Of a DNA stretch of 4,236 nt, positions 110-3,897 are shown one piece after another; the stretch's first letter is position 1; each line of letters begins with the position of its first letter. The translations under genes and the position numbers were made by a program. The stretch is from Escherichia coli (GTDB lineage: Bacteria; Pseudomonadota; Gammaproteobacteria; Enterobacterales; Enterobacteriaceae), in the NCBI RefSeq assembly GCF_024298765.1, contig NZ_CP101215.1; one strand, 5' to 3'. Below the pieces are notes generated by a model. That model saw only the letters and a list, made by a program, of their open reading frames with translations. It did no database searches and was not told where the DNA came from.

Positions 110-2329
110 TCACATACTCATGCCCCGGTAATGTCCGGGGCGTCGTTGTTGTTGCCTGTGCTGTTCGTCCCGCTTCCATTCATGCCAGGTCTGATTAAAT
201 CCGAGTTGACGGAAGAGATAATCCGGCATCTCTTCCGGTTTGTTGATGGCAGCAAAAAGCGTGTCCTGACAGCCCTTAAGCCTGAACTGCATCAGCTTCG
301 GTTCCGGTGGGTACGGAGTATCAGCATCACGGTTTATGGCCTCACCGTAACCTGCCAGGTGTATCCCGTTCTCTGTGATGATGCTTACCATCAGATGACT
401 GTAATCCGGCGACGGAAGCGCAAGAACGGGACGCAGCTCGTCCTCCAGGCGCACAAAACCGACAAGCATTTCCTCCGGCCCTTCGCACAACAGCAGATTC
501 AGCGTCCTGCTGTTTCGCTCTGTCGAAAAGACAACGGGCATGAGTTGCTCCGGTGCCGCATAAGCGGTGACGTCCACCCGGTGCGCTGACGGCAGCGGAG
601 AGGCTGCGGGCCTGCGGTCGTCGCTGAAATAAAAATTATCCGGCCAGTGATGCGGCAGCGCCGGAAAACCGTAAGAGGGCCACCCCTGGCGCATCTGTTC
701 CAGTACATGCCGGACCGTCGCACCGGAATACATTCTCACACGCTCAGGCCGCGCCATCGTCTCATGAGATTCTGGCATTCCCTCACGTATATCCGAGACC
801 ATCACAGCCCCGCCTGGCGACAGGTAAACATTCACCGGGTCATGAACACTCTGGGGGTAATGCGCCAGCTCATCACCCCATACCGTGAATTCTCCGGCTC
901 TGTTACTCAGCATCATGTAGCGGGTTATCCTGCCCGTTCCCGGCTCTCTGGCACGCCCCAGCTCCGTAATAACCCCGGCTAATGCCGTTTCTCGGCTCAG
1001 GCGATGGTTATCATGGTGTTTCAGCCGTGCGTCATATTCCTGTTCCTTCCGGCGCGCTTCCGCTTCGGCTTCCTCCCTGCGCCGCTCCGCTTCCCGTGCT
1101 GACAGTTTTTCTTTCAGCTCTGCCATTCCCGGCGAAATCCACGTATTCCACTGCGTTTCAAAGGCCTGACGACGGACGGGAATGTCCCGTTCTTTCACGG
1201 CCCTGTAGGTGCGGAGAAGAGATTCAATCTGTTTCTCGAGTTTCCAGAAGCGGAGTTGTCTTTTGCGGTATTCCGGTTCAGCCCATGTCATCAGGGGAAG
1301 CTCTGACAGGATGGACGCTACCGGACGGGCTTTTCTGAGTCCGGTCATCTCTTTTTCGAGAATATCCCGCTCTTTCACCAGCGCATTCCCCTCACGTTTG
1401 ATGTCGTTTGCCTTCCCGTTCATCGCCACGAACTCCGGTGTCATCTCCCATGCGTTCCCGCATTCCTGCGGCAGTGTGGCAATGAATTCCCGCAGGGTAT
1501 CCGCTGAGGCATTCGCGGCGGGAATGGTCAGATTAAGGGCTTCCGCTGCACGACGTGCGGCATCGCTGAGTTCCCGTTTCCGCACGTTCTCCTGTACCTG
1601 GATGACTGCCAGCCTTGTGCGGGAAACCTGTATTTCCAGGTTAAGGCTGTTAATCAGGCGGTTCTGCTCACCGCGTTCTGTTTCCATGCCCCGTTTTTCC
1701 ATCGCACAGGCAGCCTTTCCGAGGTGAAGGCCCGGCGCTTTCTCCAGTCCCTGACGCTCGTATGAACGATGGTCTATCTCTTCCTGGTAGCCGGCGTTCG
1801 CAAGCGCTCTGTTCGCATGGTCAGCCCATGATGCGCGCCACGTCTCGGCGAGTGCCCGGTCGTTCCAGTCCCTGACCTTTCCTGCGAATCCCGTTTCCCC
1901 GACAGCTCTCGTGGTCAGCATGATGTGTGCATGGGGGTTGGTCCGGTCCATATGATGGAACGCCACATCGGCAATCATGCCCCGACTGACAAAGTTTTCC
2001 CGGACAAAAGCGAGAACGGCCTCCCGTGCGGCCTCGCGGGAAATCTCACGGGGAATGGCGAGTTCAATCTCCCTTGCCAGCTGGGAGTTCCGGCGCTGTT
2101 CGGCTTTCTCGACCGCATTCCAGAGAACGGAACGGTCACCACACCAGGACGGTGCATTCGCAGGGGTGAGAATGACCGCATCATCAACGCCGCGTTTACG
2201 GGTGTAATCGTGGATTAATCCGGTACGGTCATCGGGTATGACAGAGCCGGAACGGTAGGCAGCAGAAGCAACGGCACTGTAGCCGTTTTTTCGCGAAATG
2301 ATTTTCATGCTGAGATGATAAATCGCCAT
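110..2329 (-). CDS. mobA: MobA/MobL-family (MOBQ-type) conjugative relaxase with a long C-terminal extension of unknown function, about 739 aa
   Basis: A continuous 768-codon minus-strand ORF (110..2416) in the supplied track. I place the start at the internal Met (ATG at 2329-2327) because the protein then begins MAIYHLSMKIISRKNGYSAVASAAYRSGS, the conserved N-terminus of MobA/MobL relaxases (compare RSF1010 MobA, MAIYHL...), with the catalytic Tyr region near the N-terminus and a 3-His metal motif HHMDRTNPHAHIML. A WADHANRAL motif and a charged, coiled-coil-like middle section (REAERRREEAEAEARRKEQEYD) follow. The C-terminal roughly 260 residues (about 110..890) have no motif I can assign. 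Stop TGA at 110-112. Established knowledge: the MobA_MobL family signature. Inference: start codon choice. Confidence 0.9.
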   Translation of the reverse strand: MAIYHLSMKIISRKNGYSAVASAAYRSGSVIPDDRTGLIHDYTRKRGVDDAVILTPANAPSWCGDRSVLWNAVEKAEQRRNSQLAREIELAIPREISREAAREAVLAFVRENFVSRGMIADVAFHHMDRTNPHAHIMLTTRAVGETGFAGKVRDWNDRALAETWRASWADHANRALANAGYQEEIDHRSYERQGLEKAPGLHLGKAACAMEKRGMETERGEQNRLINSLNLEIQVSRTRLAVIQVQENVRKRELSDAARRAAEALNLTIPAANASADTLREFIATLPQECGNAWEMTPEFVAMNGKANDIKREGNALVKERDILEKEMTGLRKARPVASILSELPLMTWAEPEYRKRQLRFWKLEKQIESLLRTYRAVKERDIPVRRQAFETQWNTWISPGMAELKEKLSAREAERRREEAEAEARRKEQEYDARLKHHDNHRLSRETALAGVITELGRAREPGTGRITRYMMLSNRAGEFTVWGDELAHYPQSVHDPVNVYLSPGGAVMVSDIREGMPESHETMARPERVRMYSGATVRHVLEQMRQGWPSYGFPALPHHWPDNFYFSDDRRPAASPLPSAHRVDVTAYAAPEQLMPVVFSTERNSRTLNLLLCEGPEEMLVGFVRLEDELRPVLALPSPDYSHLMVSIITENGIHLAGYGEAINRDADTPYPPEPKLMQFRLKGCQDTLFAAINKPEEMPDYLFRQLGFNQTWHEWKRDEQHRQQQRRPGHYRGMSM

Positions 2330-2377
2330 TTCTGCCGTAATGCCTTTTTGCCGTTTTCTTTCAGCCCCGCAGGGCGC

Positions 2378-2425
2378 ACACAATCGAAACGAAGTGAAGA
2401 TTGTATAAGTGCGCACTTCGTGATA
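2378..2425. other. Candidate origin of transfer (oriT) with MOBQ-type nick motif, overlapping the divergent mobA/mobC promoter region
   Basis: Seen in sequence: inverted repeat ACAATC (2380-2385) and GATTGT (2399-2404) with a 13-bp spacer, followed one base later by TAAGTGCG|CAC (2406-2416). This matches the RSF1010/R1162 oriT nick core GTAAGTGCG|CCCT, which I recall from memory. A second inverted repeat, acgaagtg (2389-2396) and cacttcgt (2414-2421), brackets the putative nick. The position between divergent mobA and mobC is the canonical MOBQ arrangement. The strand and exact nick position (predicted between 2413 and 2414) are inferred. Confidence 0.55.
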
Positions 2426-2449
2426 TGCCGTGCATTATGCCAGCTCAGT

Positions 2450-2477
2450 TTTTAAACTACCAGTGACGAGCTAAAAT
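2450..2477 (+). promoter_or_regulatory. Putative mobC promoter (-35 TTTAAA, -10 TAAAAT)
   Basis: Seen in sequence: TAAAAT at 2472-2477 with TTTAAA at 2450-2455 (16-bp spacer), about 30 nt upstream of the mobC ATG at 2508; AGGAG Shine-Dalgarno at 2495-2499. By-eye hexamer match only. Confidence 0.25.
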
Positions 2478-2507
2478 GCGATTTTTCACCGCGCAAGGAG
2501 TCACGAA

Positions 2508-2783
2508 ATGAGCAGAACACTCGAACAGAAGATTGCTGAAGCTGAGGCCAGATTGCAGCGCCTGAAGGCGAAGAGCCGGAGCCTGGACACTGCGCAAAAA
2601 GTCATTGTGGGAGCAGCCATGCTGGCGAGGGTACGGAGGCCGGAAGAGGCGCAACTGCGTGCGTTCCTGCTCCAGTTCCTGCGAAAGGAAGTCACAAGAC
2701 AGGCCGATGTGAACCGGCTACAACCACTGATTAACGAGCTGGAGAAGCTACCAAGACCACCTGCGAAACCGCAGAACGGATAA
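2508..2783 (+). CDS. mobC: MobC-family relaxosome accessory protein (91 aa)
   Basis: ORF 2508..2783 with a good RBS (AGGAG 2495-2499). The protein is small and basic, and it contains QKVIVGAAMLARV, which resembles the conserved RKVLVGAMILAKV segment of RSF1010-type MobC (recalled from memory). It is divergent from mobA with the oriT-like sequence in between, as in MOBQ systems. Confidence 0.8.
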   Translation: MSRTLEQKIAEAEARLQRLKAKSRSLDTAQKVIVGAAMLARVRRPEEAQLRAFLLQFLRKEVTRQADVNRLQPLINELEKLPRPPAKPQNG

Positions 2784-2974: not shown

Positions 2975-2995
2975 GTTATCTGATAAGGCTATTTG
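2953..2995 (-). other. ColE2-type origin of replication (Rep-primed ori) immediately 3' of rep
   Basis: The minus strand reads CAAATAGCCTTATCAGATAACAGCGCCTTTTCGGCGCTTTTTTGAGC, starting in the last codons of rep. From memory, the ColE2-P9 minimal origin contains AGATAAGCCTTATCAGATAACAGCGCC just downstream of rep; the exact base-by-base match is not verified here. Placement directly after the rep stop fits the known ColE2 architecture. Confidence 0.6.
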
Positions 2996-3897
2996 TGCAT
3001 TGCCCAATTACGGATCGTATTTCGATGTACATCCAGCATCGCCGCAATAGCTTTCTGAGAATATCCATTCTCCAGCATACATAGCGCCATGAAACGCTTG
3101 TCCTCGTAGGCTTCGCCTTTAGCAAGGCCACCTTTCCGGCCTCGAGCGGCCTGTACAGCGGAAAAGCCTTCCGGTGAGAATTTTCTGTGCGTGTATTTCG
3201 CAATGCTCTTGCCAATAGCCCGGCATTCAGCCAGTGAAAGAGGAACGGGAAGCGATGCGTTGTACATTTCGACACGCTGGATCACGGCATCAAGCCACTG
3301 TGAGAATGCTGGCCATCCCTGACGAATCGCTCTGTAAGCCCATTTGCGCGTCATTTCGAACAGGTGGCAGTTTCGCCCCATCCCGTAATGTTTATCGATG
3401 CTACGACGCTCTGAGGCGCTCAAATCGAGATAATCTGCCAGTTCATCGAGGGTATAGGCTTCCTCGCGCCACTCCATCACCTGCCATTCCAGGTGGAACG
3501 GATTTTTGCAAATCAGTCCGCTGTAGTTCACATCAGCACAAAGTTTCTCACACAGCGAACGTTCAATCGCGGCAGCATATTTCAGCGCCTTAACCGACGC
3601 ATCAGGCGCGGTTCTCACGGCGATATTGAGTGCATAGAGCAGGTGAGCGTGTCCGTTCACAGGATTTTTAACGGTGATGTTCGGCGCGGGGGCGTTCCGG
3701 TCGCTCCAGTCAATCGCTGCCCCCTCGCGGTCAACGTCAAAAACCAGCCAGAACTGCGCATGAGGCTGGTTCTGCTGGATGTACCGCGCAAGAAGCGCAC
3801 GCCCTTTGCCGGAGATGCGAAGGCCGAAAGCGAGATCATCCGTGTGATAGGGACGGTGGGGTAAATTTTCTTCGAAGTATTGAAGCGCGGCGCTCAT
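2989..3897 (-). CDS. rep: ColE2-family plasmid replication initiator / plasmid-specific primase Rep (302 aa)
   Basis: ORF 2989..3897 (-). RBS GGAAGGAA about 10 nt upstream of the ATG at 3897-3895; stop TAG at 2989-2991. The protein has long stretches I recognise from ColE2-P9/ColE3 Rep: YIQQNQPHA, DWSDRNAPAPNITVKNPVNGHAHLLYAL, VRTAPDAS, YAAAIERSLCEKLCADVNYSGLICKNP, YTLDELADYLDLSA, LFEMTRKWAYRAIRQGWPAFSQWLDAVIQRVEMYNASLPVPLS, ECRAIGKSIAKYTHRKFSPEGFSAVQAARGRKGG. The C-terminal tail (…ENGYSQKAIAAMLDVHRNTIRNWAMHK) looks like a helix-turn-helix, consistent with origin binding. Confidence 0.92.
   Translation of the reverse strand: MSAALQYFEENLPHRPYHTDDLAFGLRISGKGRALLARYIQQNQPHAQFWLVFDVDREGAAIDWSDRNAPAPNITVKNPVNGHAHLLYALNIAVRTAPDASVKALKYAAAIERSLCEKLCADVNYSGLICKNPFHLEWQVMEWREEAYTLDELADYLDLSASERRSIDKHYGMGRNCHLFEMTRKWAYRAIRQGWPAFSQWLDAVIQRVEMYNASLPVPLSLAECRAIGKSIAKYTHRKFSPEGFSAVQAARGRKGGLAKGEAYEDKRFMALCMLENGYSQKAIAAMLDVHRNTIRNWAMHK

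Follow-up and report, generated by a model that had tools for sequence, protein, structure and literature searches.

The MOBQ4 family of mobilizable plasmids, with its sub-groups Q41 (Rep_3 replicon) and Q42 (ColE2 replicon), was defined by Garcillán-Barcia et al. (Front Microbiol 2019, PMC6856555), who placed pIGWZ12 and pE2022_4 in MOBQ41 and ColE9-J in MOBQ42. In that study the origin of transfer (oriT) was mapped, and mobC proved dispensable but raised the mobilisation frequency. The best helpers were plasmids with an I-type mating-pair formation system (MPF_I): mobilisation of MOBQ42 per donor amounted to 1.2 with R64drd11, 0.12 with RP4, 1e-3 with pCTX-M3, 1e-4 with R6Kdrd1 and 8e-5 with R751, and stayed below 1e-7 with F, R100-1, R27, R388, pKM101 and pOLA52 (PMC6856555). 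The same paper reported that identity between the C-terminal parts of the Q41 and Q42 relaxases goes down to 35%, and one of its sentences remarked on a "low homology to SogL" primases, naming no part of SogL as the similar one, describing no domain structure and not tying the similarity to helper preference. No later paper taking up this MOBQ4-SogL similarity was found in the literature accessible. The present analysis concerns the relaxase gene mobA of a 4,236-bp stretch of Escherichia coli DNA (contig NZ_CP101215.1, assembly GCF_024298765.1), hereafter called the window, and in particular the C-terminal module of its product MobA, which homology assigns to the C-terminus of the Sog proteins of IncI plasmids.

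IncI plasmids encode SogL and SogS, of which the latter, an 844-residue protein, begins downstream of the primase domain and is without primase (PMC6112013). Hundreds of copies of both proteins reach the recipient cell, and their delivery does not depend on DNA transfer (Wilkins and Thomas 2000, cited after PMC8406263 and PMC6112013); it has been proposed that Sog coats the transferred strand (PMC6112013). When the IncI1 plasmid pESBL was probed by transposon-insertion sequencing, the part coding for SogS received a score of 1.00, "required for transfer", and 26% of SogL turned out to be non-essential (PMC4288162); this 26% presumably corresponds to the primase-only N-terminus. MobA of the window is a member of MOBQ42, and the gene, the family and the hint at SogL were already published. 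What is added here are the domain boundaries and the fold of the C-terminal part, the exclusion of a primase, the restriction to MPF_I systems, and the repeated capture of the module, including a second barrel type.

The MobA module and the last 300 residues of SogL and SogS from IncI plasmids are 34-45% identical over about 95% of the module's length, as found with both phmmer and tblastn. The phmmer matches, to Sog and to the MOBQ41 relaxases, had E-values of about 1e-47 to 1e-60 and covered positions 4-290 of a 299-residue query; in a word-indexed search, proteins bearing the name "DNA primase" aligned with 96% of the query at 39% identity. The 2472 records retrieved by tblastn against plasmids fell into groups: relaxases of MOBQ42, with 90-100% identity, relaxases of MOBQ41, with about 41%, and 1829 conjugative plasmids with a gene annotated as SogL, LPD7-domain or DUF5710-domain protein (34-36%). 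On the 1255-residue SogL of an IncI-gamma/K1 plasmid, the match spans roughly residues 946-1246. Hidden Markov models (HMMs) derived from an alignment of the last 299 residues of MobA with 20 homologous C-termini (alignment A1, also the basis of the structural model of the module) resolve this stretch into a part resembling an oligonucleotide/oligosaccharide-binding (OB) fold, at SogL residues 943-1028, and a larger beta-rich part, hereafter the barrel, at residues 1041-1244. The other recognisable domains of SogL are DUF5710 (residues 8-59), Toprim (266-365) and LPD7 (776-861); none of the three was matched by MobA even at E up to 10. The shared stretch is thus the extreme C-terminus, which primase-less SogS has as well as SogL, and no long member of the family has more than about 25 residues beyond the module.

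An exhaustive HMMER scan of 1.84 billion representative sequences gave only 60 at E<=1e-3; P0045, a 2461-residue repeat protein retrieved in the representative search, was a spurious low-complexity match and was dropped. When AFDB50 was searched by Foldseek with the modelled structure, all matches were either MOBQ4 relaxases or conjugative proteins, some of them called primases, that go by the names Sog, TraC or LPD7; they came from enterobacteria, Serratia and Pseudomonas, with E-values of 1e-27 to 1e-29 against the AFDB models of SogS and Sog. A preliminary description of the window had held that the C-terminal third of MobA matches nothing, and had proposed profile- and structure-based searches together with a comparison with full-length homologues. 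The searches have now been run and correct that statement, since they find Sog and the MOBQ4 relaxases, those of MOBQ41 included, as relatives; the comparison indicates that the extension is conserved and not plasmid-specific. With homology established in both sub-domains, the module is, on this evidence, copied from the C-terminal end of Sog.

The N-terminal part of MobA identifies it, by family match and catalytic residues, as a MOBQ (MobA/MobL) relaxase. PF03389 matches residues 18-213 with E=7.7e-69, the MobQ model NF041496 scores 260.9 bits against a cut-off of 200, and the PDB relatives of the domain are NES (4ht4, E=8.5e-30) and MobA (2ns6, E=1.6e-9). Y25, E87, E89, H125, H133 and H135 are invariant across a 15-sequence alignment (A2), and the same set is named as the catalytic residues of the MOBQ4 relaxase in PMC6856555. 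The middle region has no Pfam or NCBIfam match. In a full-length AlphaFold2 model, which served only for secondary structure and domain order (predicted local distance difference test, pLDDT, 63), it is predicted to form helices at residues 220-265, 298-333 and 347-436, with pLDDT mostly 50-85.

The module itself was modelled with more confidence (AlphaFold2 from A1, mean pLDDT 86.8), and its second sub-domain, the barrel, is predicted to consist of one helix, about 11 strands and two short terminal helices, at pLDDT 92-97. On MobA the A1-derived HMMs place the OB-like part at residues 446-512 and the barrel at 528-731. Structure model and HMMs together delimit the module to residues 449-739 (about 291 residues, window positions 113-985); it is encoded by the 3' 40% of mobA and takes about a fifth of the 4.2-kb genome. 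The extension of about 260 residues (480-739) proposed in the preliminary description is therefore a real folded domain of larger extent, and the start then given, at position 892 (residue 480), falls inside the first sub-domain. The accompanying view that no characterised function is known for this part was sound, and the module has neither a Pfam model nor a solved structure: Pfam, NCBIfam, PADLOC and PHROGs gave no matches on the C-terminal 299 residues, Pfam gave none on any of the 21 aligned C-terminal homologues, and PDB sequence and profile searches matched only the relaxase domain, a single C-terminal match at E=0.95 being noise. Over the last 299 codons the ratio of nonsynonymous to synonymous substitution rates (dN/dS) is 0.29 in the comparison with a ColE2 plasmid and 0.31 in that with a plasmid of MOBQ41. 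At about 0.3, the C-terminal module evolves under purifying selection.

The OB-like sub-domain also occurs by itself. Relaxases of other classes, namely Ti-type TraA, TaxC of IncX and MobP1, widely carry it at their C-terminal ends, as do toprim proteins on large plasmids (P0059, P0061, P0068 and P0070 are examples of proteins with the lone sub-domain). Its match to the NCBIfam MobP1 model covers the final 90 positions, yet Pfam has no family for it.

The barrel is, as far as the profile scans go, characteristic of MOBQ relaxases and of the Sog-like proteins that belong to I-type systems. Sog- or Pri-like proteins from E. coli IncI-gamma/K1, E. coli IncI1/B/O, Pseudomonas lurida, Klebsiella, Enterobacter and IncL/M were scanned with the HMMs, and all six have the OB-like part and the barrel at the C-terminus; in IncL/M Pri the barrel is divergent and the match partial (E=4.7e-13). 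P0046 was rejected as the IncL/M Pri, its best plasmid match being at 39%, and the IncL/M Pri itself was scanned instead. Gene context was compared in these and in a carrier on an E. coli draft contig. In the six carriers whose neighbours are named, the sog-like gene lies in a Dot/Icm-like (MPF_I) transfer operon, in the order DotB-like traJ, IcmT-like traK, the sog-like gene, a DotI/IcmL-like gene and a DotH/IcmK-like gene. In the IncL/M carrier, where the neighbours are mostly unnamed, an equivalent order is deduced from position. A seventh carrier, P0042, has the same operon position. The module was not found in NikB or in any other open reading frame (ORF) across 45 kb of IncI plasmid, nor in TraC or TraI of IncP-1 R751, the plasmid that stood in for RP4 in the module scan.

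Comparison of barrels with the relaxase domains to which they are attached points to more than one acquisition. The relaxase domains of MobA of the window, of the MOBQ41 relaxase P0011, and of P0023 and P0036 are 67-76% identical, and the barrels of these four MOBQ relaxases are of two types, with about 26% identity between types. The P0036 barrel shares 85% identity with Sog-like P0042, encoded in an MPF_I operon, and 78-79% with the Sog-like protein that IncI1/B/O plasmids, p1108-emrB among them, encode. The MOBQ41 barrel is 52-56% identical to that of IncI Sog and only 46% identical to the MOBQ42 barrel. Because similar relaxase domains carry two barrel types that each match Sog proteins, the comparison indicates that small-plasmid relaxases took the module from Sog-like genes, or replaced it from them, at least twice. 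P0023 resembles MobA, type-I OB part included, up to about residue 530 and continues with a second, type-II OB part and a barrel, as would an intermediate in the replacement of the module by recombination. The type-II architecture is not an assembly chimera, since it recurs in several independent sequences; their contigs measure 3.9-7.4 kb, and one has a Rep_3 replicon. The synonymous divergence (dS) between the MOBQ42 and MOBQ41 genes, the latter represented by pIGWZ12 mobA, is 0.77 in the relaxase domain but rises to 1.6-1.9 downstream of it, over the middle region and the C-terminal part. Such unevenness along the gene points to mobA being a mosaic, and suggests that its relaxase/oriT end was exchanged more recently than the remainder. 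As to the genetic setting of P0023 (824 residues; Logan SRR23994534, 838-3312), it lies on a 7.4-kb Rep_3 contig that additionally encodes a glycosyl hydrolase 28 and a transporter of the major facilitator superfamily.

A protein tail shared by the helper's Sog and by the relaxase of a plasmid in need of a helper may be a helper-matching recruitment and translocation device for I-type secretion systems, a function to which I give about an even chance and which, together with the identity of the partner, I infer from the comparisons above. HUH relaxases in general stay covalently attached to the transferred strand; MobA would accordingly nick oriT and remain bound to the strand to be transferred. 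Its Sog-like tail would present it to the I-type coupling complex (TrbC/DotL-like with TrbA/DotM-like) as Sog is presented, and the helper would export MobA, with the plasmid strand attached, through its own channel. The OB-like part may additionally hold single-stranded DNA. Docking of this kind would explain why I-type Sog proteins and the relaxases of plasmids riding with them are the only carriers of the module, why its position is constantly C-terminal, why it has been retained on a 4.2-kb plasmid despite its size, and why it has been exchanged to match different Sog variants. Type IV secretion signals are usually found at the C-terminus. The preference of MOBQ42 for R64drd11 as helper, the export of Sog without DNA and the need for the SogS-coding part in transfer lend docking further, indirect support. 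Of the functions listed in the preliminary description, the comparative evidence favours coupling. For entry exclusion or an anti-host activity nothing was found in support, the defence and phage families giving 0 PADLOC and 0 PHROGs matches on the C-terminal part at E up to 1.

The proposal can be taken further, if more tentatively and with somewhat less than even confidence. The OB-plus-barrel tail might be a portable, helper-specific passport for Dot/Icm-like machines, repeatedly copied from the Sog of the I-type plasmid being ridden and swapped by recombination in the linker, whereby the relaxase would mimic the most exported protein of its helper. Barrel type would then both predict and set helper specificity, and the tail would be the first defined folded substrate-recognition domain of conjugative type IVB systems.

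Several observations weigh against a docking role. RP4, whose mating-pair formation system is of type T (MPF_T), mobilises MOBQ42 only ten-fold below R64 (0.12 vs 1.2), and pCTX-M3, an MPF_I plasmid, is a far poorer helper in absolute terms (1e-3; PMC6856555). Since RP4 helps well and the related IncP-1 plasmid R751 is without the module, MobA must carry other recognition determinants. NikB, the cognate IncI relaxase, also does without the module, which is therefore not a general relaxase docking device in that system, and the barrel of IncL/M is divergent and only partly matched. The literature yielded no experiment on the module in either MobA or Sog and, as far as it was accessible, no mapping of the Sog export signal. 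Finally, the OB-like fold and the strand-coating proposal made for Sog (PMC6112013) fit a role in DNA handling equally well.

According to this alternative, the module binds or protects the transferred single-stranded DNA, or aids establishment in the recipient through recircularisation or complementary-strand synthesis, as proposed for Sog, without serving as a docking signal. Such a role is compatible with the Sog homology and could coexist with docking, the two being not exclusive; that it accounts for the module in place of docking seems unlikely, although it deserves to be taken seriously. A self-association domain, by which MobA would heteromerise with the abundant Sog of the helper and be exported by riding along, the coupling protein not recognising it directly, is a good deal more doubtful. 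Relaxase barrels do track Sog variants closely, as the 85% identity of P0036 and P0042 illustrates and as would be expected if like binds like, and Sog is exported in hundreds of copies. However, no evidence was found of Sog oligomerising via the module region, and MOBQ42, with an identity to IncI Sog of just 42-45%, still reaches a mobilisation frequency of about 1 per donor.

It is very improbable that the module is a diverged primase remnant comparable to the RepB' part of RSF1010 MobA. RSF1010-type MOBQ relaxases are fused to a primase, and homologues of the module bear the database name "DNA primase". The counterpart in SogL (residues 943-1244), however, sits about 580 residues downstream of the Toprim domain, and the homologous stretch is retained in SogS, which has no primase. 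The stretch shared with MobA is thus outside the Toprim domain of Sog, and the primase-remnant reading was therefore rejected. Besides, no Pfam primase family and no solved primase, RepB' included, was matched at E up to 10, and the predicted fold, an OB-like barrel followed by a beta-rich domain, is not that of a primase. The preliminary description had offered a diverged primase-like remnant as one possibility, which the position in SogL and the presence in SogS contradict, while doubting that RepB' was the fusion partner, rightly so in the absence of homology to the RSF1010 RepB' primase.

Next to no credence can be given to a C-terminal frame open by chance or decaying as a relic, with homologues that stop near residue 480: mobA is indeed split in the closest PLSDB record, NZ_CP063498.1, but by a single extra A confined to that record, whereas hundreds of homologues, some as distant as Pseudomonas, are full length (715-739 residues for nearly all family members), and both the dN/dS and the module's pLDDT given above refute this reading. 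NZ_CP063498.1, where only a 362-residue "hypothetical protein" is annotated, differs from the window by substitutions at 350 and 484 and by the extra A at window base 1225. The split is therefore a frameshift of that record, and the extra A is probably a sequencing or homopolymer error rather than biology.

The open frame as such runs from 110 to 2416 on the minus strand, 768 codons from a GTG at 2416. The accepted start is the ATG at 2329 (MAIYHLS...), which is used by homologues and by RefSeq and gives a protein of 739 residues. The 29-codon upstream extension of the mechanical ORF (2330-2416) reaches into the putative oriT, and is most likely untranslated because homologues begin at MAIYHLS. 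The same gene, 2220 nt long, is annotated in ColE2, ColE9 and cryptic relatives; mobA is 98-100% identical to annotated MOBQ42 genes, and the annotation is "MobQ family relaxase" in 98.6%-identical plasmids as well as in the ColE9 and ColE2 plasmids. The two peptide strings quoted in the preliminary description are both present in the translation. Between codons 330 and 480, no in-frame internal start with a convincing Shine-Dalgarno sequence was found from which a SogS-like short product could be made. In other frames or on the opposite strand, several ORFs of 48-174 codons lie across the 3' part of mobA (65-589 on the plus strand, 499-723 and 342-488 on the minus strand). They show no sign of being genes, and were not taken as such because the mobA frame is under purifying selection and annotation gives them no support.

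With three genes, mobA, a mobC-like gene and rep (Table 1), and no tra genes, the window makes up an entire small plasmid, whose replicon is of the Col156/ColE2 type. It matches 1596 PLSDB records, mostly from E. coli, Salmonella and Shigella; identity is 98-100% with cryptic plasmids of 4.2 kb and about 97% with the backbone of colicin E9 plasmids (96.7% for the 6.7-kb pGZM7g). Its backbone, divergent mobC and mobA genes around a 178-bp gap together with a ColE2-type Rep, is that of MOBQ4 and more precisely of MOBQ42; the divergent mobC/mobA arrangement is described in PMC6856555. The MOBQ4 oriT was delimited experimentally to 178 bp in the 2019 study (bioRxiv version 10.1101/726927), and the mobA-mobC gap was assigned as the putative oriT because it equals that region in length and position. 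The 91-residue divergent gene is "hypothetical" in RefSeq copies though in the mobC position; the equivalently placed gene of the MOBQ41 plasmid pIGWZ12 is annotated as MobC. Rep is matched by Replicase PF03090 (E=8.9e-44) and PriCT_1 (PF08708, E=6.6e-4) and has a helix-turn-helix at its C-terminus, an architecture that fits a ColE2-type primase-initiator and agrees with the dedicated ColE2 Rep that the preliminary description had recognised. The PF03090 and PF08708 pair is listed for Q42 plasmids in the MOBQ4 supplementary table (PMC6856555).

Table 1. Features of the window and domains of MobA, in window coordinates (aa, amino acid positions in MobA)
Feature	Coordinates	Strand	Description and basis
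mobA coding sequence	110..2329	-	739 aa plus stop; MOBQ4 (MOBQ42) relaxase; ORF, translation, annotated relatives
HUH relaxase domain, aa 1-213	1691..2329	-	Y25, E87/E89, H125/H133/H135; PF03389, NF041496, PDB
Middle region, aa 214-448	986..1690	-	Predicted long helices, coiled-coil-like; without family match
Sub-domain A, aa 449-513	791..985	-	Small five-strand beta-barrel, OB-fold-like (predicted)
Linker, aa 514-529	743..790	-	pLDDT <50 in both models; least conserved stretch
Sub-domain B (barrel), aa 530-729	143..742	-	Beta-rich domain of about 200 aa; homologous to SogL aa 1041-1244
C-terminal tail, aa 730-739	113..142	-	RRPGHYRGMSM end; basic, disordered; pLDDT <60
mobA-mobC intergenic region	2330..2507		Putative oriT of MOBQ4 plasmids; 178 bp; position and length match
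mobC-like relaxase accessory gene	2508..2783	+	91 aa; ORF; divergent from mobA
rep	2989..3897	-	ORF; Pfam matches

Small Col-type plasmids of the MOBQ42 kind, which disseminate colicins and move together with IncI resistance plasmids, are, with the PLSDB records counted above, among the commonest in E. coli, Salmonella and Shigella. How a mobilizable plasmid fits its helper is poorly understood, and so is substrate recognition by conjugative Dot/Icm-like systems. If the tail of MobA is a recognition module, helper range could be read from sequence and changed by domain swaps, and the long-unexplained C-terminal part of Sog would gain a function. If it is a DNA-handling domain instead, it would still represent an unmodelled domain family common to relaxases and conjugative primases. 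The combined results provide a testable hypothesis for helper specificity.

Among known systems, the C-terminus of SogL and SogS of R64, ColIb-P9 and other I-complex plasmids is the one that the MobA module resembles in sub-domain order, in predicted fold and in its extreme C-terminal position. The contexts differ: Sog is a protein of 1255 residues with DUF5710, Toprim and LPD7 domains, encoded in the tra operon of the helper, whereas the MobA module is carried by a MOBQ relaxase of a 4.2-kb mobilizable plasmid. The translocation signals TSA and TSB of F/R1 TraI (PMC3912908) are likewise folded relaxase domains, internal or C-terminal, and they direct the protein to the coupling protein, the kind of function proposed for the module. 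They are unlike it in fold and family, nothing similar being among the PDB matches, and their role is validated by experiment whereas that of the module is a proposal.

A third comparison is with MobA-RepB' of RSF1010 and R1162, likewise a MOBQ relaxase with a C-terminal partner related to a conjugatively transferred protein. That relaxase-fused primase is said, after work by Parker and Meyer in 2007 and by Meyer in 2015, to carry type IV transport signals, and in both systems the C-terminal partner would contribute to recognition by the secretion machinery of the helper, as is proposed here for MobA. The C-terminal parts are nevertheless unrelated in sequence and fold, the MobA module having no primase domain, and the preferred helpers differ in kind, being IncP plasmids for RSF1010 and MPF_I plasmids for MOBQ42.

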